Shown here in pieces: positions 19,527 through 41,600 of a stretch of 64,000 nucleotides of DNA. Source of the DNA: a virus; IMG/VR virus record IMGVR_UViG_3300045988_168162, positions 82,781 to 146,780 of that record; one strand, 5' to 3'. Each line of letters begins with the position of its first letter. Position 1 is the stretch's first letter. Both the position numbers and the translations under genes were made by a program. The notes under the pieces were generated by a model that did no database searches, was not told the origin of the DNA, and was given only the letters and a program-made list of their open reading frames with translations.

Positions 19527-22500
19527 ATGGCAGAAGATTTAAATATTAAGGTAAAGGTAACACCTGATACCAGTGGGGTACAGGGAGAGCTAAATGGACA
19601 GGCTGGTAGGTTTAATTTGCCAGTAAAAGTGTCACTGCAGAATGTTGCGGATATACAAACTCAAATTCAAAATATCGGCAAAAACATTGATGTTAAAGTT
19701 AATCTTACTATGGCACAGAACGGTGTAAAAAATCAACTAAATAGTTTAAAGAATCAAAAGGTTGATATGCAACTGTTCGACACCACGAAACTTACGCAGG
19801 AATTAAATAAAGTAAGCAGTGCTATTGAAAAAGCTGTCTCAAAGATTCAGATCGCTTTGTCTACAAAGATAGATTCTACAATGAAGGCAACTGCGAGCAA
19901 TGTCGAAAACCTCGGAAAATCTTTTGGCACTATTCAGACAAGAATAGATTCTATTAAAAATACTGGCGACAAGGCTAAAATGCAGGCCGGCCTCGATACT
20001 GCCAAGAAGAACTATAACAATCTTATTCAGCTTGGCACATTGACAACAGAACAATTTAGTGGGATGGCTACTCAGCTTGCTATGGTGAATCGCCAAGTTC
20101 TTGACATTGTTGCGTCTGAAAAGAAATTAGAAAATCAAGCAGCAAGAGTCGCCAAGATCAATATGCGTGGCGATGAACTTATTGATTCTTACAATCGTGG
20201 TAATGCAGATTTGAAAGATGTGTATGATGCGTCTGCTAAGAAATATAGAACAAAAGACGACAGAAACGCAAAACGCAGATTGGATCGACAGCAAAATAGG
20301 ATTAGCGGTCTCATTCAAAATTTCCAGAACAATCCTACGACAGAAAACTTTGATCTTCTATCTCATGAAATTACGATGTATGAGCGAAACAGCAATGATT
20401 TGCAGAGTACATTAAGAGCCGAAAAGAAAGAATGGGAAGATAACGAAAAAGCAAAACAGAATGCTGCAAAAGCTACTGCTGCCGTGGCAAAGAAGACGCA
20501 GGAAGCGCAACAAAAAGCAGAAGATGCACGAAAAAAGACTGCATCGAATTTGAATCAGCAATTTGCAAATTCTGATTTTTCTGATTCGCAAATTAAATAT
20601 TTCGCAGCAAAAAACAACGGTTATAGCACTGCAGATATGAAGCGGTACTTCGCAAGTACAGACAAATGGAACATTAAGCTCAAATCCGCGATTTCCGCAT
20701 TTAATAATGATCCTACTGAACAGAATCTTAAAAAGCTGACTACTACCTATAATGGATATATTACCGCCAAGAAAAAGTTGGATACTTCCTTGACTGAAGA
20801 AAAATCCAAATGGGAAAAGACAGCAGCCGGTATTAAAAAATCCGGGGAAGACCTTGGCAAAACATATTCGGCGCTTGAACAGAAAAAGGCAAAACTTGAT
20901 TCTACTTACACCAAAAAAGTAGAAGGAACACAATTTACAAATCAGGCCATTGAAGATCTTGCAAAAGGGCAAAATGGCACGACCAGTATTGCTACATTGT
21001 TTACTGATGCAGAGACCGCGAAAAAAGATTTTGAAAAAAATATGGACAGCGGTTCTCTTGCACGATATAAAGCTGCAATAGAAGCTTTGACGCAGGCGCT
21101 TGCCAAAATGGACGCAGAGCTTACTGTAGCCGCAAAAAGCTCTGACCAGTTCAATAGTCAAATGCGGGCAAAACAGAACAAATACTCCAGTGAGATGACC
21201 CGGCTTAGTCAGTCCGGCACTGATTTACAGGATCTTGCAATAAGAACTGGCCATGGAAACATGGTTAATAGCAACACGGCGGAAGGCGTACTTTGGGGAG
21301 AAGTTTCTGACGCCAGCAAAGAAGCAAGAACCGCAATGGCGGAGTTCGATCAAAAGCTTGACACAAACAGCCTTTTGAAGTACGAGCAGGCATTGCAGCA
21401 CCTAAAAGAGTTGCTATCTCAGTTCCGTGATGAACTGACGAAAACTATTACTGCTACTAATAAGATGGGCGATATTAAAGATACAAACGCCGCCCAAATG
21501 AGTGAATATCAGAAGAGTTTGCAGGAGCTTACCGCAAGATATAATACCGCTGTTGCAAGTAAACAGGCCAACGGTAAGGATATGGGCGGTTTGCTTGTCG
21601 GAACGGATTTAACTGCTATCAATGACGCTTACACTAAAGCAGATCAAGCCAAAGCGAATTTTGAGCGCGATATGAATCAGACTTCGCTGGCTGCCTACAA
21701 AACGGCCATGGCTGCTTTGGCGCAGGAAATTCGCAATCTGACTTCTGCTTTGGACTCTGCTGATAATTCTGCGGAGAAGGCATTTAGTTCGTTGCCAACA
21801 CAGATGAATGCTGTCGAAGGCACCCTCAAGACGTTAAATGATACATATCGTGCGCAGCAAAACCGCGGTAAAAGTGATGCTGGCGTAGAAAGCACAATTC
21901 AGCTTTATACTGATGTGCTTAAAGAGATGCGGCAGATAGAAGCTTCTGGCAGTAATGACTATTCTCAATTCACGGAAATGTTCAAGAAGTTTGATTCGCA
22001 ATTGCAAGCATCTGGCATTAACATCAATAACTTTACAGACTTCATGCGAGCCATGAATTCCGTGGCTACTCAGGCAAAAGTTTCTATTGGTGATCTTGGC
22101 AACGAATTCAAACAGCAACAGAGCATTGAGTCTTTGAATAAGCGCTTGAACAATCTACTGTATACCATGGAGCGCTATGTTGAGATCAATAAAAAGATCC
22201 AGGGCAATTCTGACGTAATGAACCAGTACAATAGTGTGAAATCTGATATTCAGAGTGCCTTGCGGAGTACAGATGGCGCATTTAAAGAAAGTACATTGTC
22301 TAAGGCTGCTGAAGGATTTTCGGCACTGAAAAAACAGGCGCAGGATCTTGAGCTTGAGGGTAAGACACTGAGCCAAGTATTCCAGAATCTGTTTGGCCAG
22401 CATTTTAGTACGATGGTCGCCATGGGTGCGCTGCATTTGATGCAGAATAGCTTACAGCAGGTTTATCAGAATGTCGTGGATATTGATACGGCTATGACGG

Positions 22501-23579
22501 AACTGAAGAAGGTTACGGATGAGACGAGCTCGACTTATTCTAAGTTTTTGAGTGACGCCGGTAACCAGGCCAAGGAGTTGGGCGCCAGTGTTAGCGATGT
22601 GGTTAGCGCGACTGCCGACTTTGCCCGGCTTGGATATAACTTACAGGATGCCAATGAGATTGCCGAGTCTGCCATTATGTTTAACCGTGTTGGCGACGGC
22701 GTTTCTGATGTTAATGAGGCCAGCGAAGATATTATTTCGGCTATGAAGGCTTTTAATATCGAGGCCGAAAACAGTCAGCAAATCGTTGACAAATACAACG
22801 AGGTAGGTAATAATTATGCCATCAGTTCGGCAGGTGTCGCGGACGCCTTGACTAGATCGGCCGCTGCACTGCATGCCGCCGGAAACGATATTAACCAATC
22901 TATTGGTATGATCGTAGCAGCCAATGATGTCGCCCAATCGCCCGAGCAGGTAGGAAATGCCTTAAAGGTACTTTCTTTACGTATTCGTGGAGCGACTACT
23001 GAACTTGAGGCCATGGGCGAAGATGCCGACGGAGCCGCGACCAGCACAGCAAAACTACAGGCTGAAATTAAGGCTTTGTCTGGCGTTAATATCATGAAGG
23101 ATCGGGATACATTCAAATCTACATACGAAATCTTGGATGAATTGGCTGATAAGTGGGATAGTCTAACTGACGTCTCCAAGGCCAGCATCCTGGAGGACCT
23201 TGCTGGCAAAAACCGCGCCAGTGTTGTAGCCGGTATGTTGGAAAACTGGGATGATGCCAAGAAAGCCATGGAGACAGCACAGAAAAGTGCAGGCAGCGCA
23301 GAAGCGGAGTTGGAGACAGCATTGGATTCCGTGCAGGGCAAGCTCTCTCAGTTCCAAGCTACTTTTCAATCTTTTTCCGAGACCGTCCTCGATTCTGATT
23401 TAGTTAAAGGTATTATTGATTTTGGTACAAGCGCACTAGATGCTGCAGATGGATTTACCAAATGGGCCGGAGTAATCCCGACCTTGACCGCAGCATTAAG
23501 TGCCTTTTTGTCGTTGTCTGGTACGAAGACTCAGGGCAGTATTCAGATGCTCGCTTACGCAGTAGGAATAGCTGCGTAG
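19527..23579 (+). CDS. Tape measure protein, N-terminal part with TP901-family core region
   Basis: AAGGAGG SD plus ATG 19527. Coiled-coil repeats are followed by the core ..AMTELKKVTDE..GASVSDVVSATADFARLGY..NEVGNNYAISSAGVADALTRSAAAL... It ends at TAG just as a hydrophobic segment begins. Confidence 0.85.
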   Translation: MAEDLNIKVKVTPDTSGVQGELNGQAGRFNLPVKVSLQNVADIQTQIQNIGKNIDVKVNLTMAQNGVKNQLNSLKNQKVDMQLFDTTKLTQELNKVSSAIEKAVSKIQIALSTKIDSTMKATASNVENLGKSFGTIQTRIDSIKNTGDKAKMQAGLDTAKKNYNNLIQLGTLTTEQFSGMATQLAMVNRQVLDIVASEKKLENQAARVAKINMRGDELIDSYNRGNADLKDVYDASAKKYRTKDDRNAKRRLDRQQNRISGLIQNFQNNPTTENFDLLSHEITMYERNSNDLQSTLRAEKKEWEDNEKAKQNAAKATAAVAKKTQEAQQKAEDARKKTASNLNQQFANSDFSDSQIKYFAAKNNGYSTADMKRYFASTDKWNIKLKSAISAFNNDPTEQNLKKLTTTYNGYITAKKKLDTSLTEEKSKWEKTAAGIKKSGEDLGKTYSALEQKKAKLDSTYTKKVEGTQFTNQAIEDLAKGQNGTTSIATLFTDAETAKKDFEKNMDSGSLARYKAAIEALTQALAKMDAELTVAAKSSDQFNSQMRAKQNKYSSEMTRLSQSGTDLQDLAIRTGHGNMVNSNTAEGVLWGEVSDASKEARTAMAEFDQKLDTNSLLKYEQALQHLKELLSQFRDELTKTITATNKMGDIKDTNAAQMSEYQKSLQELTARYNTAVASKQANGKDMGGLLVGTDLTAINDAYTKADQAKANFERDMNQTSLAAYKTAMAALAQEIRNLTSALDSADNSAEKAFSSLPTQMNAVEGTLKTLNDTYRAQQNRGKSDAGVESTIQLYTDVLKEMRQIEASGSNDYSQFTEMFKKFDSQLQASGININNFTDFMRAMNSVATQAKVSIGDLGNEFKQQQSIESLNKRLNNLLYTMERYVEINKKIQGNSDVMNQYNSVKSDIQSALRSTDGAFKESTLSKAAEGFSALKKQAQDLELEGKTLSQVFQNLFGQHFSTMVAMGALHLMQNSLQQVYQNVVDIDTAMTELKKVTDETSSTYSKFLSDAGNQAKELGASVSDVVSATADFARLGYNLQDANEIAESAIMFNRVGDGVSDVNEASEDIISAMKAFNIEAENSQQIVDKYNEVGNNYAISSAGVADALTRSAAALHAAGNDINQSIGMIVAANDVAQSPEQVGNALKVLSLRIRGATTELEAMGEDADGAATSTAKLQAEIKALSGVNIMKDRDTFKSTYEILDELADKWDSLTDVSKASILEDLAGKNRASVVAGMLENWDDAKKAMETAQKSAGSAEAELETALDSVQGKLSQFQATFQSFSETVLDSDLVKGIIDFGTSALDAADGFTKWAGVIPTLTAALSAFLSLSGTKTQGSIQMLAYAVGIAA

Positions 23580-23815
23580 GATGCAACCTGAGTCCTATTA
23601 TAAATACCCAAACTGCTGGGAAAAGCTAAGAGCCGTGTGACCACAATAGGGGAATGATCCGCTATGACGGTGCCGAAAGGCAGAAACAACAACACGGATG
23701 CGATAAGCTGAGATAAAAGCTGCTATCGCGTAAGTTGACATAAGATATTAAAACTACGGGGCTTCGTGTAGTGCCAAGAACGAGGCGGTGATTGATTTGG
23801 AGGTGGAGGTGTGGT

Positions 23816-24076
23816 ATGATTAAAGAAATAGCTCATAAGATGTGGAATAAAATACTTGTAAAACGAAATATATGGTGGTTGAACAAATACGGTGATGAGC
23901 TAAACAAAAAGTACAATGGTAAAATGCTTTTGATTGTGGATTGCGAAGTAGTTGCAGTTGGCTCATTTTTAAGTGACATGCCGCATAACAATGAACCTGG
24001 GGCACTGTACTGCCAAACAAAGATTGTTGATCCGTATAGGTATTTTGATTTTAGTAAGAAAACTTCTAAACCATAA
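23816..24076 (+). CDS. Small protein, DUF5678-like
   Basis: GGAGGTG SD. KYNGKMLLIVDCEVVAVG resembles the GKWVAIvdGeVV signature. Confidence 0.45.
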   Translation: MIKEIAHKMWNKILVKRNIWWLNKYGDELNKKYNGKMLLIVDCEVVAVGSFLSDMPHNNEPGALYCQTKIVDPYRYFDFSKKTSKP

Positions 24077-24090
24077 AGGAGTAAATAAAA

Positions 24091-24519
24091 ATGGCTGCAT
24101 ATACATTTGACGGAATTCCAGCAGGGGCGCTTACAATTGGTATTCTTGTGGATGTGTATGCAAATTTTGCACGAAAATGTGTTACTGGAATTATAGATAC
24201 TGGGTGCTCAAATACATGTATTTCTGAGGAATTGGCAGGGATAATGGAGTTGCATCCTTGTGGCCATACAGAATATACTGTTGTTGGCGGAGATAGGGTT
24301 TCCGTCAATAAATACATGGTTAATATAATGATTGATGACACAATACCGTGCGGAGACATCGAAGCAGGTTCTTACCATAAAGGCTCGGAATTTTACGATG
24401 TGATTATTGGCATGGATATACTTAGTAAGTGCGATTTTGCAGTTACAAGCGCAAATGGCCACATGAAGCTAACTATGGAGTATCCTTCTAAACGAGACCT
24501 CGATTTTACAAAAGAATAA
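24091..24519 (+). CDS. Retropepsin-like (clan AA) aspartic protease
   Basis: IIDTGCSNTCIS (DTG motif) and VIIGMDILSKCDF (ILGMDFL-like flap/dimer motif). Confidence 0.7.
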   Translation: MAAYTFDGIPAGALTIGILVDVYANFARKCVTGIIDTGCSNTCISEELAGIMELHPCGHTEYTVVGGDRVSVNKYMVNIMIDDTIPCGDIEAGSYHKGSEFYDVIIGMDILSKCDFAVTSANGHMKLTMEYPSKRDLDFTKE

Positions 24520-24780
24520 CCGCAGGGTGGCACCTACGGCTATACATTTAATATTTTATGTCAGCTTACGCGGAGGCAGTGCTAAGTCGCGTAAACAATG
24601 TTTAATCAGCAGCCGGAGACCCGTGCAGTTTACTGCACAGATGGAGGGTGTGACCTCTGGGTTTCTGGTTCATCGACTGTATGGGTAGCCCTATTCTATG
24701 GCCTTTGCCGGATGGGAGGAAAGACAGTCAGAACATCATGGGAAAGCCATGAGAAGGTTATAATTTTACAACCATGGGTA

Positions 24781-24809
24781 TTGACATACAACTAAAGGTG
24801 TGGTATTAT
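24781..24809 (+). promoter_or_regulatory. Sigma-70-type promoter
   Basis: TTGACA, 17-nt spacer, TATTAT. Confidence 0.5.
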
Positions 24810-24815
24810 AATTGC

Positions 24816-24950
24816 GCCGAAAAGTTAGGAATGTTGCAGCCACAGAATTAAAGCCACCTTTTCTTTAAACTGTAGGTCATTTATCTCCAATTCCTTGTCA
24901 GTACCCTTTCCGGTATAGTCGCTGGGTTTGTCCGCCTGGCGGCTTTTTTG
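24816..24950 (+). ncRNA. Candidate small RNA (about 135 nt)
   Basis: Bounded by the promoter at 24781 and the terminator at 24917-24950 (AGTCGCTGGG / CCTGGCGGCT plus T6). No SD-led ORF. Pyrimidine-rich CCACCTTTTC and ATCTCC motifs are present. Confidence 0.3.
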
Positions 24951-24993
24951 TTTATAGGTATAATTTTGAGTTATCGGATTGTAAATATTTTTC

Positions 24994-25045
24994 TTGACAT
25001 GAGGTTCAATTGAACTTATAATATAGAAAAGAGTTCAGATGAACT
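24994..25045 (+). promoter_or_regulatory. Consensus promoter with two palindromic operators
   Basis: TTGACA (24994), 17-nt spacer, TATAAT (25017). GTTCAATTGAAC (25004-25015) sits in the spacer and AGTTCAGATGAACT (25032-25045) lies downstream. Confidence 0.7.
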
Positions 25046-25064
25046 TATAAGGAGATATTTTGCA

Positions 25065-25397
25065 ATGGAAGAATTGAGCCTTGACGGATTCACTTTGGTA
25101 AACCTTACGTCCGCTTCGACTTTACATCAAAAAAGGCTTGTGTTGGAGCTTACACAGCAACAAGTGGCTGACCGTGCGAACATAGACTTGCAGCAGTACC
25201 GTAAATTTGAATCCGGTGCAAGAGATGTACGCAGAGCCTCTTTTGATGTTGCTTGCCGTGTGATTAAAGCGCTGGAGATGGATGTTGGGAAATTTTTTGA
25301 TGGTGATTATAGTTTTGGAGAAGAAATTTACAGCGAAAACGGCGAACTGAAATACAAAAAGACTGGCAGATCAACAAGCGATAATATTGACCAGTAA
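25065..25397 (+). CDS. XRE-family helix-turn-helix transcriptional regulator
   Basis: LTQQQVADRANIDLQQYRKFESG HTH. AAGGAGA SD. Confidence 0.85.
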   Translation: MEELSLDGFTLVNLTSASTLHQKRLVLELTQQQVADRANIDLQQYRKFESGARDVRRASFDVACRVIKALEMDVGKFFDGDYSFGEEIYSENGELKYKKTGRSTSDNIDQ

Positions 25398-25421
25398 TAA
25401 ATACTTGATATAAAAGTAAGA

Positions 25422-25448
25422 CCGCCCCTGCGAAGGGACGGCCTTTTA
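25422..25448. terminator. Bidirectional terminator hairpin
   Basis: CCGCCCCT-GCGA-AGGGACGG hairpin with T-runs on both strands. Confidence 0.55.
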
Positions 25449-25468
25449 TTGTTTATGAGGAGGTTTTT

Positions 25469-25627
25469 ATGACTTTACAGATTACAGGAGACGCAAAAGA
25501 AATAGCCGAATTGATTGAGATGTTACAAAAGCAGTGCACTAAAGATGCCAAATTGAGAAATTATGTTTGCGGTTGCATCGAGAATAATAGTGGATCAATC
25601 AAATTGTCAAGACAAAATCTCGGGTGA
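25469..25627 (+). CDS. Hypothetical 52-aa protein
   Basis: GAGGAGG SD plus ATG. MTLQITGDAKEIAELIEMLQKQ... Its 3' end overlaps the convergent gene by 21 nt. Not in the ORF track. Confidence 0.35.
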   Translation: MTLQITGDAKEIAELIEMLQKQCTKDAKLRNYVCGCIENNSGSIKLSRQNLG

Positions 25628-26266
25628 TTCAATCCATTGGGCATGTGTTTCATCAATTACTAGAACATCACAGCTCTCGCTAATTGATTGCAACCAGCCG
25701 TTATAATATTGCAATTTGGATGCTGTAGCGTTTATAAAACGCAGGTAATTTACACCTTCTTGAAGTGAAAATAAAAGACAATTAGAATTTATTTGCTGTT
25801 GTGACATAAGCTCAAGTGCTATTTTATTATCTCCTATTGCACTTATGCATATCCCATTTTCGTTTGTAATTTCTTCTATTTTATCGTCTACCAGCGTTGT
25901 TTGAAACACTTCACATATACCATTTTTTACTGCTGCACCGATCATAATTATATTTTGGCTTGTTGCATGTATTTTCAATTCAGTTTTCAAAGCACTTAGT
26001 TCTTCTTGAATAGAAATAGACGAGGCTGAAAGGCTAAGAAGAAATTTCTTTATTATAGCAGATATTGGTGAACCGTCATCAGCTATAAGATTCCCTGTGT
26101 ATGCTATTCCGTGTCCACTTTTAGTTGTAAACACTTTTTGTTGGTAATTCAAAGATGAATAAAGAAGTGCTTGTCCATCTGGCGTTGGTTTTGGATTTAG
26201 CGTAAGCCGCTTGTCTGCTGTCATTACAATTCCATATTGGTTTGCTAATACAAGTACAAGAGACAT
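25607..26266 (-). CDS. Proteasome beta/HslV-like Ntn-hydrolase candidate
   Basis: N-terminus M-SLVLVLANQYGIVMTADKRLT fits the T-T-x-(x)8-G-V-V-x-A-x-D-x-R pattern, with Ser in place of the Thr1 nucleophile and Asp at mature position 17. Later GIAYTGNLIADDG and SAIGDN motifs follow. Confidence 0.45.
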   Translation of the reverse strand: MSLVLVLANQYGIVMTADKRLTLNPKPTPDGQALLYSSLNYQQKVFTTKSGHGIAYTGNLIADDGSPISAIIKKFLLSLSASSISIQEELSALKTELKIHATSQNIIMIGAAVKNGICEVFQTTLVDDKIEEITNENGICISAIGDNKIALELMSQQQINSNCLLFSLQEGVNYLRFINATASKLQYYNGWLQSISESCDVLVIDETHAQWIESPEILS

Positions 26267-26287
26267 ATAGTATTCATCCCTTTTTAA

Positions 26288-26830
26288 TTACCATTCATAC
26301 CCACAATGGTTGCAGTGGAACTGATGCTTGATCTTCTGGCTAAAGATACCCAGCATCAGGAAATTGCCAGCCTTTTGAGTGACCGTAATTGGTTTGATGT
26401 CTGTGCTATGACATGTAGGGCAACGTGGACGAGTAGCTTCGCGTTCTGTACGTTCACGCTCGCGGCGGGCTTGGGATTCTTGCTGTGTATTCTGTTGTTG
26501 CTTTTCTTTTAATTGTCTTGTTCTAACATCAAACAATCCTTTGTTGAAGTCGGAACTATTATACACATAAATATTTCTTAGATACTCATCAATAATTGGA
26601 CTCTCTGTTTCGTTGTCTATGTTCGCAATTGTATACTCTCTTTTGGAGATTTCTTTAAGTATCTGGTTTTCGCTTTTTGATAGAATTTCACAGAACTGTT
26701 GTTGTGTTAATAATTTTATTTTTGGATTATGACAAAACCAACATTCATGTTTTTCATCCTGATCCATTGCAGTAACATCCCCACAGATTGTACATATAGA
26801 CATTTGGAGAGAGTTAAGATAATCGTCCAT
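26288..26830 (-). CDS. Double zinc-ribbon protein
   Basis: CTICG..(15)..CWFCH at the N-terminus, a Q/E/R-rich linker, and CPTCHS..(33)..CNHCGYEW at the C-terminus. AAGGAG SD. Confidence 0.7.
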   Translation of the reverse strand: MDDYLNSLQMSICTICGDVTAMDQDEKHECWFCHNPKIKLLTQQQFCEILSKSENQILKEISKREYTIANIDNETESPIIDEYLRNIYVYNSSDFNKGLFDVRTRQLKEKQQQNTQQESQARRERERTEREATRPRCPTCHSTDIKPITVTQKAGNFLMLGIFSQKIKHQFHCNHCGYEW

Positions 26831-26848
26831 TTTATTCTCCTTTTATAC

Positions 26849-27280
26849 TTAATGCGTTATTATGAATAAACCGCCAACAAGCAGAATCAGAATGCCGACG
26901 CCACTATCGGCAGCAGACATCGAACCCGTAAGCAACGCTAAAATTAAATAAGGAATCCCGATGATTGCCAAAATCATTATCAACCAAGTAAGGCAGCCAA
27001 TAAAGTCCTTGCCGATATCAGATCTAATGTCGTCTTGTTCTCCCTTGTTTGGCGGATTGTATTGGGAATGCTGCGGCCTGTTTGTGGCTTTTGGACACTG
27101 AACCGGATTTTGTGATGTCTGAGTTTTAGGCTGTGGCATAGGAGTGTTTGTCGATGATGCATGAGTTGCATTGCTGTTTGGTTCGTTCTCCGAAAAGTTC
27201 CGATCAAATGCCTGCTTATAATGAACATACCCATCAATGCCCTTGCCAAAGTAGCCGTAATCATCCTGTTTGCCTGCCAT
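26849..27280 (-). CDS. Membrane protein with 2 C-terminal TM segments
   Basis: GGAGGG SD. Soluble N-terminus DDYGYFGKGIDGYVHYKQAF, a P/Q/N-rich linker, then WLIMILAIIGIPYLILALL and VGILILLVGGLFII. Confidence 0.7.
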   Translation of the reverse strand: MAGKQDDYGYFGKGIDGYVHYKQAFDRNFSENEPNSNATHASSTNTPMPQPKTQTSQNPVQCPKATNRPQHSQYNPPNKGEQDDIRSDIGKDFIGCLTWLIMILAIIGIPYLILALLTGSMSAADSGVGILILLVGGLFIITH

Positions 27281-27322
27281 GATAATCCCTCCGTCCCAAA
27301 CACAAATTATAACCTTACAACG

Positions 27323-27351
27323 ATTATATCACACTACTATCGTTGGAACAA
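27323..27351 (-). promoter_or_regulatory. Putative extended -10 promoter of the minus-strand operon
   Basis: On the minus strand: TTGTTC, 17-nt spacer, TGATATAAT. It overlaps the first codons of the 27343 ORF. Confidence 0.35.
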
Positions 27352-30300
27352 GTGATCTTGAATCTTTTGAATATGTTTGGTACTGGTAAGAATGTCAACA
27401 CTGGCAATACATATATGACATTCTTGGGTAAGGAAGCATTGACTGCTCGTGATGATGTTAAAGCCGTCATTAACGAAGTCGAAAAGCTAAAGAATGCTGC
27501 CGGCCAAAGTATCTCTATTAACGATACTGCTGGAATTTGGGGCGCGTTTTTGCTTGGAAAGAACAATCAGAATTATGACTTTTCAAAAAGCTTAGGCAAC
27601 GACATAATTGCTCTACGGGCATACCTGGATGACGTAACGAATAAGGGGATGTCTGCGGCGGATGCCTTAAATGATGTACAGGTATCTGTATCTGGTACAA
27701 CGGTTGAATTTGAAGATTTTGCTAAGAGTATAGACACTACAGGCATGCATTTTGACCAAGCGGCCTCTATTTATATTCCTGCATTTATAAAGCAACTGAC
27801 CAGTGCCGTCACAATTACAACGGTAATGAAGGGCGTCCTCAAAGGGCTTGTTGGCATTATTGGAAATCTTGCCGTTGCTGCCGTTGCATCTTTGGCTATG
27901 GGTGCATTGATAAAAGCTGCAGAAAAGGCTGGCGAAGTTCTTCATAATTTCAAAGATAATACTTTCGGAAAATCTCTTGAAGAACAAAAAGAGCAGATTG
28001 ACGAAATGGGGCAGGCACTGGACAATACGGCCAGCTCTATTGATTCCTACAAATCAAAAATTACAGACCTGAAAGATTCTATCGACAGTGGCACACTCAG
28101 TGAGCAGGAAGCTTATCAGGCACGCAAGGATCTGCTAGAAATACAGGATGAGCTGATTCAAAAATATCCTGAAGAAGCGTCTGGTATTGATCTGCTAAAT
28201 GGCAGTCTGGAAACACAACTCGACTTGTTAAATGGTATTACTGAGGCAAAAGCTCGTGCTTATCTCTCTGAAAATAATGATATAATTCAGAAATCTTATG
28301 AGGAGATGACAAAGCAGCGCACCTATAAATCTACCGGCTTTGATAATTATCTTGAAGCTGATAGCAATGACATGTCTGAAATCGAAAAGATTGCTCAGAA
28401 ATATGCGGACAAAGGACTGGCATTTGCTCAATATGGTTCTGAAAAGAATGGTAAGGCGCGTTACGATATTGAAGTGACTGCGGATGTTTCGCAGGCCAAA
28501 GATGCTATTGATGATTTTTATAACGACGTACAAAAAAGTAATCTTATAAGTGACGATGCAAAAGAAGCCTTATCTTCTCGTTTGTCGCAGTGGAGCAATG
28601 AAGCAAAAGGCATAGTTGACGAGTATGGTGATTACGCAAAACAAGCGGCCAAGTATGAAATTCAACTGAATGACACTTGGTCCAAGACTTACTCCGACCT
28701 TGAAGAAGCCCAGGAAACCTACAATGATGCCGTTGCCAAGAATGACGATAAGGCCATTGCGGCGGCACTGAAAAAGGTCAAGGCCGCTCAGGACGAATTT
28801 GCCAATACTGATATTGACAATAGCTTTGTGCAGCAGTATATGCAGGCGCAGGCGGATCAGTTGGACAGTGCTACGAAACTACAGGCTGTTCAGGCCGGAC
28901 TTTCTGAAACCTTTAAGGGTACCACCTCCAACTACAAGTCTCTGAATGATTATCTTGATGTTACAGATCACAAAGCTGAACAGCTTACCGACAGTATCAC
29001 TTATAATCTGAATGAACTTAAAGGTCTGGATGATATTGATATCCTTAACATTGGCAGCCTCGAAAAAGCAGGATCTGCATCTAAAAATTATACAGACGAA
29101 CAAATTGCCTCGTATAATCGTTTAAAAGGCGTAGCAGATCAGCTTGGCGTTTCCATGGATGACCTAATTGATATTTTTGTCAAGATTGGTCTCGTAACTA
29201 GCGACAATATCAAGTATACCAACGAGTTTACCAGCTCCGCGTTGACCATGGCAACTGCAGCTAGCAAGGCTATATCCAGTGTTACTTCTATCCTGAATTC
29301 GCAGGGAACTGGCGTTAATGTTGATGCCGATTCTTACAGCGAACTGATCAAGGATAATGCTGAATACGCGGCCGCACTGCAATACAGCAACGGCACCATG
29401 CAGCTGAACCGCGAGATGGCACAGCAGCTTACCGAAGCAAAAGTAAAAGAGTCTGAGGCTTATATCAAGGTGGCTTACAGCCAGAACCAGGTCAAGTATG
29501 AGAAGGTTAAGAATGACCTATCCTATTACACAGATGAAGTTCGTAAATCCATAGAAGCTGACGCAGACAAGTTGAAGCAGTTTGACGAAGAAAAGGCTGC
29601 ACTGGAAAGCCAGAGCCAAGCACTTCGTGACAATTGCCGTAGTTTGCAGATGCAGTACTCGGCTTTGATGCAGGCGAGTAGTGCCTACCAGGATTGGTTG
29701 AACGCACAGAATGCTACTGAATCCGGCGACATGTACGACAGCGCCATTGAAGCAAAGAAAGCTTTGGCCGAAGGACTGAAGAACGGCAAAATTGGCACGG
29801 TCAAGTGGCAGGCTGCTTCCGAGTTTTTGATCCCGGATGACTACGAGGGGACAGCTGCTGAATACATCAAGAAATTGAATCGCTACTTTAAGCAGGCCAG
29901 CGATGGTTCTGATGATGGTTCCGGCATCAACAACTTTATCACGGATAGCCTGAAGGCCGGGCTGATGAAGCAAGAGAGTGATGGCTCTATTAAGATCCTG
30001 GCAGACAAGACCACGGAAGATTTTGCAAAAGAGCTGAAACTTTCGCCAGATGCTGTGCAATCTATCTTTGGTGAGATGCAGGAGTATGGCTGGACCTTTG
30101 ACTGGGGCAGCATGCTTGGCGACCCAATCACTAACTATAAAATGCAGCTGGACGACATTAAAGACCAGATGGCAGACCTTGAGCCGGATAGTGAAGCGTG
30201 GCAGGTTCTGGATGCCAGGGCAGAAGAGTTAGAGAGTGCTCTGGATGGGCTGTACCAGCGCAGCGGACTTGACCAGCTTGCCGATACGGTACAGCAAGCG

Positions 30301-33138
30301 AAAGACAATGGCGTTGAGCTAAGCGAAAGCGCCCAGCAGGCAGCCGATGCACTTGATTCTGCGGGTCGTGTGCAGAATGAGCTGGATATCTATGACAAAC
30401 AGCAAGAGATCAATGAACAGCAGCAGAATCTGACCAATACTTCTGATTTTGAAAATCTGGCAAAGCTTAACCAGGAAATGACTGAACTTTTACAAAAGCG
30501 TCAGCAAATGGGTGAGCCTACAGATACTGAAATTGAACTGTATTTGAACCAGCACGCGGATGCCAACGGCGATATACCCAGTGATGTCGTTGAAAAGATG
30601 AAAAATGCTGGTGTTATCAAAGTTGATACAGAAGCTGATAAGTCGCAACTTGAACAGGCTTCTGATGAACTAGATGCTTTAAATGGTAAGGCAAAAACTC
30701 CTGTTAAGGTAACTGTCAATTCTTCTGATGCTATGACGAAGATTAGCAATCTTGGTACAGCTATAGCCAATCTTATCAAAGACTACACTATCAATATCAA
30801 GGTAAATCAGAGCAGTTCTAATTCTGGCTCTAGCGGAAAGAACCAAAAATCGACTCCGTATGTAGCGCAATATCACGGCATCAATGGTGCTTATGGTGGT
30901 GCCTTTGCCGGTGGCCGTACACTGGTTGGTGAACTTGGTAACGAGTTAGTTGTGAACCCGCATAGCGGCAAATGGTATACTGTTGGTGATAATGGCGCTG
31001 AGTTTGTAGACCTGCCTAAAGATGCTATTGTATTTGACCATAGCAAAACGAAGAAGTTGCTCGATCAGGGCTTTATTGGCGGACGCGGTGTTGCGCTGGC
31101 TTCTGGTACGGCCATGGATTCCGGCAGTCCGGGTAGGGGCAGTTATGTCGGCGGCAATGGTTACAAGGTTGGCCAAGACCCGCGGGTCAAGAGTACATAC
31201 AAAGCAACTACTGCATCTACCAAGGCGACCAAGGACAATACCACCGCACTGGAAGAAAACAAAAAGGCACTTGAAAAGCAAAAAACGGCGCTTGAAAAGC
31301 AGAAGGATGCCCTTGAAAAGGAATCCAACAAGCTGAAAATCTATGGCCAAGCAGCCATTAACGAAATCGAAAAGCGTATTACTGCCCTTAATAAAGAAAA
31401 GGATGCGCAGGACAAGGTCTACGAAAGCCAGATCAAAGAACTTGAAAAGCGCAAAGAGGCGTTGCAGAAAGCCAATGACGAGGAAGACCGCGCTATTAAG
31501 CTGGCCGAGTTGCAGGATGCTTTGGAAAAAGCCAAGGCCAACCGCACTGTACGTATCTACAATAAAAACGAAGGTTTTGTATGGCGTGCAGACCAACAGG
31601 CTGTAAGTGATGCACAGAATGACCTGGATGATCAGAAGCGACAGTGGAAAAATGATGATATTCTGCAGGCTGTTGATGATGAAATTGAGCGCATTAACAA
31701 TCTGAAAGATGCTTATGACGAGTCTATCGAAGCCCAAATCGACGACCTTGATAACATGAAGGAGAAGTGGGACGAGGTTATCAGCCTGATTGGCACAAGT
31801 TGGGAGTATTATCAGGCACAGCTTGCCGCGGCGGCTGAGTTTAATGGTATGAGCCTTGATGGAATGGCCGGTGCGTTGGACGGCTACAAGGACGATGTTA
31901 TTGCCAACATGAAAGCAATTGGTGATACGTCTGCGGAGATTGACCGTGTGACCGAGGCCATTGACGCCTTTGAGGAAGCATCCAGTAAGAGCGGCGGCTC
32001 TGGTAGCGGCGGTAGCGATGCGCCGGAAAGTTTTGGCATTGACGATGGCAGCACCATTGGCGATGGTCTGTTTGATGGGCTTAGTGACAGTGCAAAAGCA
32101 GCCAAAGAGGAACTGGACAAACTGCTGGAGAGATACGAAGATCTTGGCGACCGCAATGAAGGGCTATCTGAAAGCCAGCTTGCTCTTGTAGACTCTATCT
32201 CCCAAATGACCGTCGGTACGAAAGAGTACAGCATGGCCAACATGGAGTTGAGTGATATACAGAGCATTGTTGGCGATAGATATACCGAGATGGGCGATCT
32301 GGCTGAGCAGTACCGTGAGTCTGTACTTACTAACAACGAGTTGACGTGGGAGCAGAAGGATGCGCTGCTGAGCAGTTTCGATGAGATTGTGGCGTCTTAC
32401 AGCACGGGCTATGACACCATCGGCGGCCTGATGCAGAACTACATGGACACACTTGTCAGCAACACGGAGTTGTCCACTGCTGACTATCAGGCGCAGATGG
32501 ATGCCCTTGTGGCTTTTGCCGACCAGCATGGTGTCAGCTACGATTCCATAATTCAATACCTGTATAACACAGAGGCAGAATTGCGGAATACTGGTGCTAC
32601 CACGGAAGAAATTAGTAGCGCTATGTCGTCTGCGGTTTCTGCTGCGTGTTCGGCTATGAATGCAAGCTACGATAGCGTGATTGCGAAACTTGTTGAACTG
32701 AAAAAGCAACAGGCAGCCATGAACGCTGTTAAGGGTGCTGCTGGTGGAATCAATGCGAATACTGTTGCTCGTTATGCCACTGGCGTTATCGGCGCAGCCA
32801 CTACCCATATTGCCATTACTGACGAGCAAGGCCCTGAAATTAAGTTGCGCAAACCGGCTGCTGGCAACTACAGTCTTGTCGAGCGTGGCACTAGCATTAT
32901 TCCGGCAGAACCGAGTGCGAATATCTGGAAAATGGGACTTGACCCGGAGCAGTTTATCAGCCAGCACATGCCGCAGCGCAGCATTAAGAGCGTAGAGATT
33001 ACGCAGCCGGATGCAAGCGGTGTGAGTGTAAGCGTTGGCGATATCCAGATGTATGGTGTGAACGATGTTGAGAGCTTTGGCCGCGTGATTCATGAGCGTG
33101 TTGGTACGATTTTTGCCCAGGAGTTTAGCCGACGCTAA
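27343..33138 (+). CDS. Tape measure protein, C-terminal part
   Basis: Hydrophobic segments (VLKGLVGIIGNLAVAAVASLAMGALI), long coiled coils, and two TMP C-terminal hallmarks (LVGELGNELVV.. and ITDEQGPEIKL..GTSIIP). I could find no SD before TTG 27343 or ATG 27373. Confidence 0.75.
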   Translation: MEQVILNLLNMFGTGKNVNTGNTYMTFLGKEALTARDDVKAVINEVEKLKNAAGQSISINDTAGIWGAFLLGKNNQNYDFSKSLGNDIIALRAYLDDVTNKGMSAADALNDVQVSVSGTTVEFEDFAKSIDTTGMHFDQAASIYIPAFIKQLTSAVTITTVMKGVLKGLVGIIGNLAVAAVASLAMGALIKAAEKAGEVLHNFKDNTFGKSLEEQKEQIDEMGQALDNTASSIDSYKSKITDLKDSIDSGTLSEQEAYQARKDLLEIQDELIQKYPEEASGIDLLNGSLETQLDLLNGITEAKARAYLSENNDIIQKSYEEMTKQRTYKSTGFDNYLEADSNDMSEIEKIAQKYADKGLAFAQYGSEKNGKARYDIEVTADVSQAKDAIDDFYNDVQKSNLISDDAKEALSSRLSQWSNEAKGIVDEYGDYAKQAAKYEIQLNDTWSKTYSDLEEAQETYNDAVAKNDDKAIAAALKKVKAAQDEFANTDIDNSFVQQYMQAQADQLDSATKLQAVQAGLSETFKGTTSNYKSLNDYLDVTDHKAEQLTDSITYNLNELKGLDDIDILNIGSLEKAGSASKNYTDEQIASYNRLKGVADQLGVSMDDLIDIFVKIGLVTSDNIKYTNEFTSSALTMATAASKAISSVTSILNSQGTGVNVDADSYSELIKDNAEYAAALQYSNGTMQLNREMAQQLTEAKVKESEAYIKVAYSQNQVKYEKVKNDLSYYTDEVRKSIEADADKLKQFDEEKAALESQSQALRDNCRSLQMQYSALMQASSAYQDWLNAQNATESGDMYDSAIEAKKALAEGLKNGKIGTVKWQAASEFLIPDDYEGTAAEYIKKLNRYFKQASDGSDDGSGINNFITDSLKAGLMKQESDGSIKILADKTTEDFAKELKLSPDAVQSIFGEMQEYGWTFDWGSMLGDPITNYKMQLDDIKDQMADLEPDSEAWQVLDARAEELESALDGLYQRSGLDQLADTVQQAKDNGVELSESAQQAADALDSAGRVQNELDIYDKQQEINEQQQNLTNTSDFENLAKLNQEMTELLQKRQQMGEPTDTEIELYLNQHADANGDIPSDVVEKMKNAGVIKVDTEADKSQLEQASDELDALNGKAKTPVKVTVNSSDAMTKISNLGTAIANLIKDYTINIKVNQSSSNSGSSGKNQKSTPYVAQYHGINGAYGGAFAGGRTLVGELGNELVVNPHSGKWYTVGDNGAEFVDLPKDAIVFDHSKTKKLLDQGFIGGRGVALASGTAMDSGSPGRGSYVGGNGYKVGQDPRVKSTYKATTASTKATKDNTTALEENKKALEKQKTALEKQKDALEKESNKLKIYGQAAINEIEKRITALNKEKDAQDKVYESQIKELEKRKEALQKANDEEDRAIKLAELQDALEKAKANRTVRIYNKNEGFVWRADQQAVSDAQNDLDDQKRQWKNDDILQAVDDEIERINNLKDAYDESIEAQIDDLDNMKEKWDEVISLIGTSWEYYQAQLAAAAEFNGMSLDGMAGALDGYKDDVIANMKAIGDTSAEIDRVTEAIDAFEEASSKSGGSGSGGSDAPESFGIDDGSTIGDGLFDGLSDSAKAAKEELDKLLERYEDLGDRNEGLSESQLALVDSISQMTVGTKEYSMANMELSDIQSIVGDRYTEMGDLAEQYRESVLTNNELTWEQKDALLSSFDEIVASYSTGYDTIGGLMQNYMDTLVSNTELSTADYQAQMDALVAFADQHGVSYDSIIQYLYNTEAELRNTGATTEEISSAMSSAVSAACSAMNASYDSVIAKLVELKKQQAAMNAVKGAAGGINANTVARYATGVIGAATTHIAITDEQGPEIKLRKPAAGNYSLVERGTSIIPAEPSANIWKMGLDPEQFISQHMPQRSIKSVEITQPDASGVSVSVGDIQMYGVNDVESFGRVIHERVGTIFAQEFSRR

Positions 33139-38624: not shown

Positions 38625-41600
38625 TTGGCAATATCCTTTGAAGAATCCAGAAAGAAATTTGAGAGCGCAATAGCGAACGAAGCTGCCGAACCGGCAATGC
38701 TTGCCTCCTTTGAGGAAGTAGAAGCAGTGGCAGCGGAACCTGTTATGCAGGCCGTTGTTGGAGACGATTTCACCCGCAGCGACAAATATAAATGGTATGA
38801 CCAGTATGAGGACAGTGCATACTCGACCATTGATAAGCTGAAAAACATCAAGATGGACGACAACCAGATCAACCTGACACAGGAAGATAACAGCCAGTTT
38901 ATCCCGTTTGAGATGCCGCGCTACTATGATGGCGTTGACCTGATGCAGATGCTGATCCAGGTACATTATGTTAACAAGGAAAACCAGGACGGCATTGCCA
39001 CGCCGGTAAATGTTACATACAGTGTGGACAAGATCCACTTTAACTGGTTGGTCGACAAGAACGTGACCAATGTTGAGGGTGAAGTCGATTTTGAAATCAC
39101 GGCTACCGGTTCTAACGAAAAGAACGAATCTTATCTGTGGAAGAGCCGCCCGAATGGCAAGCTGAATATTTTGAAGTCCTTGGCCGGCAATGGTGTGATT
39201 AAGCCGAGCGACGACTGGTACACCGGTTTTGTGCAGCTAATGGACGAGAAGGTTTCGGAAGCTACCAAACAGGCACAGGCTGCTGCCCAGAGTGCCACCG
39301 AGGCCAAGACGGCTGTTGCAAATGTGGACAGCAAGATTTCCAGCGCTGCTGCCGGTATCAAGCATGAGCTGCAGGCCGACCTGGATGCGAACTATGCCAA
39401 GAAAACAGAGCTTGACACGCTGAAAAACAAGGTGGATAACCTGAATGGCCTGGCCGATTTTGATGTGACCTTTAACAATGACACGAAGGAAATGACTTTC
39501 CTGAATGGCAGTGAGGAAATTAAAAAGGTCGCGATCGACACCAGCCCTTCCGCTGAATGGGTGACTGCTTACGGCAAGACAGTAGACAGCAAAGTTTCTG
39601 CCGCCGTTACGCCTGTGCAGACGGAGTTGACCGAGTACAAGACCGCCAATGACAAGGCTGTAAAGGATTTGCAGGACAGTGTTGGCAATCTGCCGGAGAC
39701 GCTGAAAACTTCTTATTATAATAAGGAAGCCACTGATAAGCTGCTGAAGGAAAAGGCGGATGCCTCTGTTATTGACGGTATTCGCAACGATGTTACGCAG
39801 GCAAAGAATAATGTAGCTGATATGCAGGGCACGGTGGACAGCCTGAATACTGCTGTTGGCGAAATTCAGGGCAAGCTGGATGACATTGGCAAGAATGCCG
39901 GGCATGAGTATGACATTACCTACGAGGACAGTAAACTGACACTTATGGAGGATGGCACGCCGAAGACGCAGGTGACGATTGTTGGCGGTGGTGGCGGTGG
40001 CCCTGCTGCGGGCAGCACGATTACGATCGAGCGTATCGGCGAGTCTGCAATTACGGCTGTTGCCGGTGACCCTGTTGTGGTCAAGTTCCGGTTCACGAGT
40101 GTGGACAGTGCGGGCGATGATACAGGCAATGCGACAGGCACATGGTATGTTGGCAATACAAAGGTTGCTACCCAGACCATTATGCAGGGCGAAAACAGCT
40201 TTGACATCACGAAGTATCTGCACAGCGGTGAGAACCAGATCCGTTTGACAGTTGTAGACAGCATGGATACGACAGGTTCCAAGAAGTGGAGTGCCAATGT
40301 CGTTGATTTCTATCTGGAATCCACCTTTGATGACAGCCTTTTCTATAGTGGCGAGGTCACGGTGCGCTATACACCGTATGGCAGCGTTGAGAAGAAGATT
40401 GATTTTGCGCTGGACGGTAAGTCGATTGGTGGCACGACTACCAGTGTGACTGGCCGACAGATGACCTATTCTATTCCTGTGCAGAAGCACGGCAGTCACC
40501 TGTTGGAAATCAGCATGACGGCGGAGATCAACAGCAAGACCGTTAAGTCCAATGTCATCAAGAAGGACATTATGTGGGTGGCTGAGGGCGAGACTGCACC
40601 CATTATCAGCTGTGCTGTGAGAGATTACGAGACGAAACAGTACAACAAGGTGTCCATTGAGTACACCGTATACGACCCTGCGTCCAGCACGAGCACTGTA
40701 AAGCTGGCTGTGGACGGCGTGACCGAGTCTACCCTGACTGTTGGGCGCACAAAGCAGATCTGGAGCTTTAAGAGCGCGAACAAGGGCAAGCATACGCTGA
40801 CGATCACTTGCGGCGAGACCGTAAAGACGATCAGTGTGAATGTGGTTGACCTTGGCGTTGTAATCGAGCCTGTTACTACGAACCTAGCCTTTGATTTTAA
40901 CCCAAGCGGTAAGACCAACGCCAGTGCAGACCGGCTTTGGACCGATGGCCAGACTAGCCTGAGTGTAAGCGATAACTTTGACTGGAGCAATGGCGGCTAC
41001 CAGATCGACAGTGACGGCGATACCTATTTCTGCGTAAAAGCGGGCACCAAAGCCACGATCGATTATAAGCTTTTTGCCGATGACGCGAAGAAACTTGGCA
41101 AGAACTTTAAGATGATTTTTAAGACCACCAACGTGCGGGACTATAATGCTACGGCGCTGACTTGCCTGAACGGTGGTATTGGCCTGAATGTGCAGGCCCA
41201 GAAAGTTGCACTGACCAGTGAGCAGAACAGTATTGAACTGCCCACATGCGAAGACGACTTTATGGAATTTGAGCTGAATATTCTGCCGGATAGCCAGTAC
41301 CGCGAGATGGTGCTGTGGCTGGATGGCATCCCATGCCGTGTACAGCTGTATGAATCCAGTGACAGCTTTACGCAGGCAAACCCGGTTGGCATCACGATTG
41401 GTTCTGACGATTGCGATGTGTTGATATATCGCATGAAGAGCTATATGATGAACCTGACTGACGATGAGATCCTGGACAACTTTATTGCAGACGCCAAGAA
41501 CGCTGACGAGATGATCGAGCGGTACAACCGCAACAACATCACGGATGCAAGCGGTGAGCTGAACCCGGACATTCTGGCGGAGCGCTGCCCCGACCTGCGT

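Follow-up and report, generated by a model that had tools for sequence, protein, structure and literature searches.

The 64,000-nucleotide (nt) stretch of viral DNA analyzed here, called the window throughout, is taken from the IMG/VR virus record IMGVR_UViG_3300045988_168162 (positions 82,781 to 146,780). It carries a phage tape-measure gene that is split into two halves. As an earlier reading of this DNA (hereafter the original prediction) correctly described, seven genes lie between the halves, on both strands and with their own promoters and terminators. Positions 23556-27354 (3,799 nt) of the window most likely have the anatomy of one group I intron. With a probability of about 77%, the gene island is the interior of this intron, which would be spliced to yield one tape-measure protein. 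Splicing of the 3.8-kb intron in cis, from the late transcript, would be the most economical reading of the region. Group I introns in tape-measure genes are known already. What is new is the cargo, which is multi-gene, bidirectional, and hypervariable.

The N-terminal open reading frame (ORF; 19488/19527-23579, plus strand) counts 1,363 codons from TTG 19488, its mechanically assigned start, and ends with the stop codon TAG 23577-23579. The PhageMin_Tail domain (PF10145, E 2e-25 in Pfam) and matches to tape-measure PHROGs agree with its first description as the N half of a TP901-type tape measure. The C-terminal ORF (27343-33138, plus strand; 1,931 codons) had been proposed to continue the tape measure, and the profile phrog_4211 is indeed colinear on both halves, with positions 561-939 on the N half and 924-1706 on the C half. 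Besides PF10145 in exon 1, the gene context, with YomU tube and YomN-like genes, and the colinearity with unsplit tape measures point to a tape measure of the TP901 type.

If the intron is removed, exon 1 would span 19527-23555 (plus strand), that is 1,343 codons from ATG 19527, which is preceded by the Shine-Dalgarno (SD) sequence AAGGAGG, to ...GSIQMLA. It would end with the U of the U·G pair in helix P1, on a codon boundary. Exon 2 (27355-33138, plus strand; 1,927 codons) would begin with ILNLLNMFGTGK.... Joining U23555 to A27355 keeps the reading frame, as is true for all five exon contexts. The predicted joined product, counted from ATG 19527, has 3,270 amino acids (aa), close to the approximately 3250 aa estimated originally, and its junction would read ...TQGSIQMLA|ILNLLNMFGTGK.... 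In the ligated-exon RNA the predicted junction is ...CAGATGCTCGCT|ATCTTGAATCTT..., and the equivalent predicted junctions of the commoner subtypes are AATATGCCCACT|ATATTAAC and TATGCCCGT|ATACAAGA. The tryptic peptide expected across the junction of the joined tape measure is TQGSIQMLAILNLLNMFGTGK.

The core of the proposed ribozyme has approximately 400 nt and consists of two blocks on the plus strand. The 5′ block (23556-23741) contains the 5′ strand of P3 (23605-23610), J3/4, the 5′ strand of P4 (23613-23618), P5, P5a-c with a GAAA hairpin (23672-23681), and the 5′ strand of a P5d extension. The 3′ block (24558-24763) continues with the 3′ strands of P5d, P5, and P4, followed by P6 with P6a and P6b (24613-24672), J6/7 (UUCA), the 5′ strand of P7 (24673-24679), the 3′ strand of P3 (24682-24687), P8 (24691-24719), J8/7, the 3′ strand of P7 (24725-24731), P9 (24736-24752), and the 5′ strand of the stem that closes a cargo loop, loop B. 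The helices from P3 to P9 could be placed in canonical order with the P3/P7 pseudoknot topology, as P3 (UACCCA/UGGGUA), J3/4 (AAC), P4 (CUGCUG/CAGCAG), and P7 (U(C)GACUG/CAGUCA), with an elaborate P5 domain and two arms on P6. The P7 region, with the putative guanosine-binding site, reads UUCA-U(C)GACUG...AAGAC-AGUCA, in columns that are invariant. J6/7 UUCA, P7, J8/7 AAGAC, J3/4 AAC, and P4 UGCUGGG, with a bulged nucleotide before the P7 G-C, resemble the R and S elements of the classic group I consensus, with the Tetrahymena intron as reference. A group II intron was rejected from the sequence, which has neither a GUGYG 5′ end nor a domain V nor a reverse transcriptase.

The two blocks are better conserved than the gene around them. 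Compared with locus L001 (L-numbers denote loci of relatives), the non-coding stretches 23547-23741 and 24547-24763 are 83.6% and 94% identical, and the adjacent exon 68.9%, which indicates a much tighter constraint on the RNA core than on the exons. The two core blocks are contiguous in L001 and many other loci but separated by a two-ORF cassette in the window. A 25-nt piece of the second block is found, exact, in 57 IMG/VR contigs.

To evaluate the structure, we aligned 20 distinct sequences, which represent four of the five exon-context subtypes. Standard pairs are formed in 92.6% of the cells of the proposed structure, but only in 34-41% when the pairing partners are slid by 1-3 columns. 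The same controls show 2-6 pairs changed on both sides, versus 16 in the proposed structure, and covariation scores of 0.047-0.076 versus 0.182. Covariation is present in P1, P5a, P5b, P5d, P6, P6b, P8, and P9, and in the test restricted to P3-P9 also in P5. Furthermore, the intron with both of its loops collapsed (a 478-nt construct) folds at -180 kcal/mol (z = -8.6), and the centroid structure recovers P1, P5a-d, P6, P7/P8, P9, and two 3′ helices.

At the 5′ end, the helix P1 (23548-23585, plus strand) holds the predicted splice site 23555|23556. In this helix, the exon nucleotides UGC 23548-23550 pair with GCA 23583-23585, CU/GG pairs are also present, and 23554-23562 pairs with 23572-23580. 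The wobble U23555·G23579 is invariant (20 of 20 sequences), and three neighboring pairs show compensatory double changes across the exon subtypes. The stop codon of the N half, TAG 23577-23579, is contained in the 3′ strand of P1, and the last eight codons of this ORF (YAVGIAA*) form a hairpin; the conserved RNA starts inside the N-half ORF. One subtype, L046/L058, reads the same hairpin in a different frame, which indicates that the YAVGIAA* tail is RNA and not conserved protein. The exon phase of the L058 type is offset by one with respect to P1; here, an adjacent second U·G gives an in-frame site.

The 3′ end of the intron (27318-27354, plus strand) consists of a hairpin (27318-27345) with the loop TATCACAC, followed by GGAACAAGUG, which ends at the terminal G27354. 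Between subtypes the stem of this hairpin differs wholly in sequence, with complementarity kept, and the loop is conserved. The hairpin is followed by ACAA-N(1-6)-G and then by exon 2. The terminal G is found before exon 2 in all 26 distinct composite sequences, and G|AT is conserved. Directly upstream of this G the lineages differ by indels whose lengths are not multiples of three, and downstream of it conservation of the peptide I-L-(N/T)-L-(L/F)..., with synonymous codon changes, sets in at the first codon. The original prediction, in which an island was inserted between the halves, was right about the split, but the passenger genes lie in two loops of the ribozyme, and the supposed start of the second half, TTG 27343-27345, is part of the stem of the 3′ hairpin.

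An independent start of the second half is difficult to find. In L003, L008, L013, L031, and the L058 type, the frame of exon 2 opens just 3-6 codons upstream of the boundary; these few codons contain no start codon in four of the five lineages, and one TTG in L013. In L080, a TAG ends exactly at the terminal G. The first in-frame ATG, GTG, or TTG of the L001 and L062 types comes 87-88 codons into exon 2, and in the window and the L003 type an ATG is located seven codons into it. A match of 5-9 nt to AAGGAGGTGAT precedes most other tested starts in the window, including all four plus-strand genes of the island, while an SD is absent before both TTG 27343 and ATG 27373, exactly as first observed. 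No SD for exon 2 was found in any lineage examined. The original prediction had also considered that relatives might have two ORFs with an SD on the second one and no island; the close relatives found all show the split with the same flanking RNA.

The split is widespread. Searching 5.8 billion proteins with a query that joins the last part of the N half to the first part of the C half gave 2,256 matches, and the best 120 of these (100% to 56% identity; 570-1,354 aa) all cover the N half only. Contigs that encode relatives with identities of 64% and 56% belong to SPbeta-like phages and have YonD, YonB, YomW, YomV, YomU, and YomN domains. They show the same gene order: the N half, a non-coding gap, a small ORF with a retropepsin-like ORF, variable genes, an antisense gene, and a C half of 1,721-2,205 aa. 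We traced the split through 35 IMG/VR loci, down to approximately 36% identity, and found an unsplit gene only in distant relatives (L016, L023, L036, L041, and Enterocloster phage PMBT24). At least 57 IMG/VR contigs have the intron, which occupies this same site in every copy inspected, across five exon contexts. These viral contigs are 40-230 kb long, come from many samples, and represent abundant human-gut phages. Cultured phages gave no match, either by megablast of 21.5-29.5 kb or by blastn of the core against 50,697 phage records, and nhmmer with the core alignment found no second intron copy in the window. A 233-kb contig, IMGVR_UViG_3300045988_152590 (L073 and L077), has two core copies; a concatemer or chimeric assembly, or two insertion sites, are possible explanations.

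In the distant relatives with an unsplit gene, the two regions are part of one protein. In the tape measure of PMBT24, a region that aligns with the N half is followed by one that aligns with the C half, and unsplit tape measures of 2.4-3.1 kaa (thousand amino acids) are colinear with the 3,270-aa joined product. When residues 1-350 of exon 2 were used for an exhaustive HMMER search, close homologues start at their own residue 1-5, and distant homologues hold this region at approximately residues 750-1,100 of proteins of 2.4-3.1 kaa. The unsplit tape-measure protein P0232 gives one high-scoring segment pair (HSP) over residues 767-1735 of the full-length joined product (E 4e-99), although this single HSP was not reproduced in a 400-residue window around the junction, where HSPs cover residues 1-118 and 287-400 and leave the junction uncovered. 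Another unsplit protein, P0285, gives the only alignment through the junction residue by residue (SIQMLA|ILNLLNMFGTGKNV versus SIEKF-LLRISSLFNTAINV). The question raised originally, whether single tape measures of relatives align across the junction, is answered by P0285 at the junction residues and by the others through colinearity.

According to the splicing model, late transcription would read the whole region as one RNA. A ribosome translating it would leave exon 1 at UAG 23577, 22 nt into the intron. The ribozyme would attack after U23555, in the U·G pair of P1, and ligation to A27355, following the terminal G27354, would create the mRNA for the 3,270-aa tape measure. The passenger genes would be transcribed from their own sigma-70-type promoters, up to their own terminators, presumably independently of the late transcript, for instance in the lysogen. 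To transcribe the intron, the late polymerase would have to ignore its plus-strand terminators.

Several observations weigh against this model. P3, P4, and P7, although 100% paired, are invariant and contribute zero covariation evidence. The Rfam group I model RF00028 has no match at E ≤1 in the window and none at E ≤10 on the contiguous copy of L001. By inspection, there is no convincing complementarity between the start of exon 2 (AUCUUG / AUAUUA) and the guide region, as needed for P10, and no convincing P2 helix was found. Many group I introns have only a weak P10 or none. The junction 20-mer ATGCTCGCTATYTTGAATCT has no occurrence in IMG/VR; its two matches in JGI metagenomes are due to chance and lie in unrelated genes without flanking homology. 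No homing endonuclease (LAGLIDADG, GIY-YIG, HNH, His-Cys box, or PD-(D/E)xK) was recognized among the island genes with Pfam, PHROGs, NCBIfam, and PADLOC, the four collections used for all passengers. Finally, loop B contains terminator-like sites at 24917-24944 and 25418-25445, as well as three antisense genes with promoters, all inside the intron. Because of these, read-through of 3.8 kb needs a processive or terminator-insensitive late polymerase. A polymerase of the YonO type has no flap domain, and published work ties the flap to hairpin-dependent termination in multi-subunit polymerases.

Among the other explanations, independent production of the two halves, already an option in the original prediction, is a minority view that we regard as unlikely. 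The ribozyme would then be a non-splicing relic or have another role, TMP-N (the N half; 1,350 aa, ending ...YAVGIAA) and TMP-C (the C half) would be separate polypeptides associated non-covalently in the tail, and translation of TMP-C would begin at an internal codon lacking an SD, for example ATG 27373. The two tape-measure ORFs that gene callers annotate everywhere, the ATG seven codons into exon 2 in two of the types, and the lack of a ligated junction in the sequence collections are all compatible with it. On the other hand, an RNA core that covaries and is more constrained than the exons does not resemble a relic, the L001 and L062 types offer no in-frame start for 87-88 codons of a peptide conserved from codon 1, the stop of L080 abuts the boundary, an SD is missing in every lineage, and relatives encode both regions as one protein. 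Trans-splicing is even less probable. Exon 1 and the core would be on one transcript, while a second transcript, starting in loop B, would bring exon 2, preceded by the 3′ hairpin and the 3′ strand of the closing stem, and the two would assemble via the 10-bp stem. In favor of this, the break would fall in a terminal loop whose closing stem of 10 bp is stable and invariant, and the plus-strand terminators inside the intron also fit. Split group I introns that are spliced in trans are known from organelles. Yet the last 1.7 kb of loop B, where all genes are antisense, contain no good plus-strand promoter, and the minimal relatives L028, L030, and L032 carry just approximately 400 nt of cargo, which is easy for cis-splicing. 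Furthermore, a cargo of 1.5-2 kb does not prevent IStrons from splicing in cis (PMC4227781).

The original prediction had left open if the island is removed at the RNA or at the DNA level. The group I anatomy supports the former. For the latter, recombination during the lytic cycle, for example across the direct repeat CTGGTA(C/A)GAA at 23518 and 27383, would restore the gene, but we consider this very improbable. The repeat exists, with 9 of 10 positions matching and in the same codon phase, as noticed originally. As was also suspected, it could be due to chance: at least one such match occurs in 17% of shuffles of the same 100-nt windows, and the repeat is absent in relatives. The island genes include no recombinase (Pfam, PHROGs, NCBIfam, PADLOC), the fusion would delete residues conserved on both sides, and IMG/VR, whose viral contigs might partly represent packaged DNA, yielded no junction without the island. 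Equally hard to sustain is a recent insertion that inactivated the tape measure of a decaying prophage, another of the original options. A stop codon and foreign-looking genes of lower GC content do interrupt the gene. However, the same architecture is seen in every close relative found, including all of the best 120 N-half matches and the at least 57 viral contigs, and both halves are intact and under protein-level constraint. Since the split is universal among close relatives, and unsplit genes occur only in distant ones, we exclude an inactivating insertion. Two further candidates were rejected. A split intein does not agree with the lack of a Hint/intein domain in either tape-measure half (Pfam), and the residues at the break are encoded by RNA helices and not conserved as protein. 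Ribosomal bypass is implausible over 3.8 kb.

In the proposed intron, the cargo is distributed over two terminal loops, each closed by a stem precisely where the similarity between relatives breaks off and restarts. Homing-endonuclease genes and IS elements occupy such loops in other group I introns. Loop A, with its closing stem, extends from 23728 to 24571 (plus strand). The stem has 14 bp, gcgtaagttgacat (23728-23741) with atgtcagcttacgc (24558-24571), and is fully paired in all seven sequences having it, with variation of the wobble type. A cassette of genes is held by loop A in the window, L010, L031, and L062; the L001 type has a remnant of approximately 70 nt, and the loop is absent in the L003 type. 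Loop B, with its closing stem, extends from 24754 to 27316 (plus strand). Its 10-bp stem, AAGGTTATAA (24754-24763) with TTATAACCTT (27307-27316), also written AAGGUUAUAA/UUAUAACCUU, is perfectly complementary. At every locus, the similarity between relatives ends exactly after GGTTATAA and returns exactly at TTATAACC.

The cargo of loop B is 1,338-4,753 nt long among the relatives. In the window it is composed of a small RNA-like unit and five ORFs, namely a helix-turn-helix (HTH) gene, a 52-aa ORF, and the three antisense genes. Gene turnover in loop B is very fast, because contigs with a 100% identical N half carry different genes. For example, five human-gut contigs (L101-L105, 10500-12900 of each) have an N-half protein 100% identical to that of the window and different loop B genes, with the 219-aa and 180-aa genes of the window replaced by sets of 74+98+212 aa or 64+161+213 aa. 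The loop B genes of relatives include SocA/Panacea with a PemK-like gene.

Loop B also has its own transcription signals. A perfect promoter (TTGACA-17-TATAAT) is located at 24994-25022 on the plus strand, and another one, TG-extended and matching 11 of 12 positions, at 24781-24809 on the same strand. The latter belongs to the small RNA-like unit (24781-24944, plus strand), which ends with the strong terminator 24917-24944 and would produce an RNA of approximately 130 nt. Past the predicted transcription start, this unit has no plus-strand ORF of at least 45 aa, it has no Rfam match, and its promoter stretch is also found in L017, L020, and L062. The opposite strand of the unit shows a 10-codon ORF with an SD-like GGAGA. 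Regarding the minus-strand promoter that was thought to overlap the start of the second half, a promoter-like site does exist at 27398-27370, but a better candidate is the extended -10 element TGATATAAT on the minus strand (plus-strand positions 27323-27331). It sits in the conserved loop and upper stem of the 3′ hairpin, approximately 40 nt upstream of a 143-aa antisense gene. Intron RNA and antisense promoter thus seem to share these nucleotides.

The passenger genes are diverse. Loop A encodes an 86-aa ORF (23816-24076, plus strand; SD GGAGGTG), which has a homologue of 28% identity beside an Asp-protease-like ORF in relatives, and of which a near-identical copy has a weak DUF5678 match. 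It is followed by a 142-aa retropepsin-like protein with a DTG motif (24091-24519, plus strand), as indicated by Pfam and PADLOC. Its Pfam matches (gag-asp_proteas / Asp_protease_2) are below the curated cut-off, and it also matches the PADLOC candidate-defence model PDC-M08B (E 1e-7). Together, the two ORFs (23816-24519) form a conserved two-gene cassette, whose position varies with the lineage between loop A and loop B. A trace of its 3′ end (AAAAGAATAACCG plus hairpins) has stayed in loop A of the L001 type, which carries the cassette itself further downstream.

In loop B, the 110-aa protein with an XRE-type HTH (25065-25397, plus strand; PF01381, phrog_3, and a sub-threshold RstR-like match) is served by the promoter at 24994-25022 and a bidirectional terminator at 25418-25445. 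It is followed by the 52-aa ORF (25469-25627, plus strand; SD AGGAGGT), for which no family match was found in Pfam, PHROGs, NCBIfam, and PADLOC. On the minus strand, the 219-aa ORF (25607-26266), replaced by other genes in sister contigs, was assigned no function by these four collections. The third minus-strand gene, encoding a 143-aa protein with a C-terminal hydrophobic segment (26849-27280), has its likely promoter inside the 3′ hairpin, and likewise no family match in the four collections. No transposase or TnpB was found among the seven ORFs, the sole related signal being a sub-threshold match to Zn_ribbon_IS1595 (E 0.005).

Between these two antisense genes lies the gene of a 180-aa double zinc-ribbon protein (26288-26830, minus strand), the only passenger common to this intron and to a second intron family described below. 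It is 33% identical over its full length to the copy of L001 and 37-44% identical in its C-terminal domain to those of L028, L030, and L032. Copies were located on the minus strand in L001 (14573-15097), L003 (16614-17150), and L032 (approximately 11575-11895). The C-terminal motif RPRCPTC.ST.I...GIFSQK.K.QFHCN.CGYEW is invariant, and the 26 database homologues are all unannotated. An AlphaFold2 (AF2) model (predicted local distance difference test score, pLDDT, 87.5) has only generic zinc ribbons as fold matches in the PDB, with E > 0.7. A role as endonuclease or maturase was considered for this protein, and no nuclease-like fold match was obtained.

A second, sequence-unrelated group I-like intron was observed approximately ten codons upstream of the site used in the window, after ...FIKNFD|, with the exon resuming at G|CAAYTTAA. 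It occurs in L028 (11150-12285), L030 (11090-12075), and L032 (11090-11980), and also in L015, L025, L027, L033, and L034. The minimal form has 850-1,000 nt and consists of a structured RNA of approximately 450 nt and one antisense zinc-ribbon gene, whose terminator doubles as a P9-like hairpin. At the place equivalent to that of the 3′ hairpin promoter, it has an antisense promoter, TTGAAA-17-TATAAA. The Rfam model Intron_gpI scores 11 bits on this family (E 7.5, L032), and no U·G could be placed in its P1. By nhmmer, the core alignment did not detect this family, so that the sequences of the two families cannot be aligned.

Further interruptions of the N half occur in L020 (10576-11891), and in L031 and L035 (8220-10001), within or beside the PhageMin_Tail domain. 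These insertions correspond to residues 1156/1159 and 1107/1108 of the window, measure 1.3-1.8 kb, and encode zf-FCS/TRASH zinc-finger proteins of 310-492 aa, with a Vsr/DUF559-like C-terminus in L020. A classic CAGACUAAGG element is present in the sequence flanking the insertions. They are probably further group I introns with endonuclease genes; on the L020 insertion, Rfam gave no supporting match. Downstream of the tape measure, the window has an ORF of 2,277 codons (38625-45458, plus strand) with the strong SD AGGAGGTGA, presumably a giant tail or host-recognition protein.

Group I introns have been described at three sites in the tape-measure genes of Bacillus cereus-group prophages, named TMP-IVS1, IVS2, and IVS3 (Tourasse & Kolstø 2008, PMC2504315). 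Similar to our case, these are group I introns in a siphovirus tape measure, at several sites, and different introns share a site or are neighbors. However, the Bacillus introns are compact, and some are without a complete homing-endonuclease gene, while the intron of the window is 3.8 kb long, and its two loops hold seven ORFs, encoded on both strands and equipped with promoters and terminators of their own, without a recognized endonuclease.

The layout is shared with the IStrons (for example CdISt1 and BcISt1), combinations of a group I intron with an IS200/IS605 or IS607 insertion sequence (IS), which are found in Firmicutes and their phages (PMC4227781). They have a 5′ group I core, a cargo loop closed by a stem, and a short 3′ segment, and they splice in vivo with kilobases of cargo before the 3′ splice site. 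Their tnpA/tnpB genes are absent here, and the window has a single copy, at one conserved site, with a cargo of shifting accessory genes, many of which are antisense. Although it would work like an IStron, the intron of the window carries no IS genes and is not one.

Other phage group I introns, such as those in T4 td, nrdB, and nrdD, in Twort, and in SPbeta bnrdE/F, carry homing-endonuclease ORFs (reviewed in PMC3984707). Like the intron of the window, they have ORFs in the terminal loops of peripheral helices, a stop codon soon after the 5′ splice site, and a phage gene as host. Instead of a single mobilizing endonuclease gene on the sense strand, the window has multiple unrelated passengers without a recognizable nuclease domain, among them regulator-like and candidate-defence-like genes. 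The island is also reminiscent of the moron and accessory hot spots of phages, having self-contained transcription units of lower GC content and a gene content that is hypervariable among phages identical in other respects. Whereas such hot spots normally lie between genes, the island of the window is located inside an essential structural gene, where the intron would make it tolerable. In the literature searched, we did not find a bacterial or phage group I intron with a multi-gene, bidirectional, hypervariable cargo.

If the tape measure is indeed restored by splicing, the thousands of metagenomic "half tape measures" (N halves of 916-1,350 aa and C halves of 1,700-2,200 aa) are probably exons of one 3-kaa protein, and the tail-length and host-range inferences drawn from such annotations would be wrong. 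The intron would also widen the known cargo of bacterial group I introns, from one homing endonuclease or IS element to a bidirectional island of 1.3-4.8 kb. The Rfam models miss a ribozyme family that is common in human-gut viromes.

Since the passengers would be expressed independently, the intron would let a variable accessory cassette sit in an essential late gene without damaging it. This suggests a route by which temperate phages may hide moron or defence cargo in an essential gene. More tentatively, the intron might be a dedicated landing pad for fast-turning accessory genes in SPbeta-like gut phages, a possibility for which the regulator, the candidate-defence pair, the toxin-antitoxin genes of relatives, and the antisense zinc-ribbon gene would be examples of cargo. 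If so, it would be the first bacterial or phage group I intron with a multi-gene accessory island, and not a mobility gene, as cargo. Completion of the tape measure would then depend on a ribozyme folding across kilobases of convergently transcribed cargo, and antisense transcription or passenger proteins might gate splicing, and with it tail assembly, between lysogeny and lysis.

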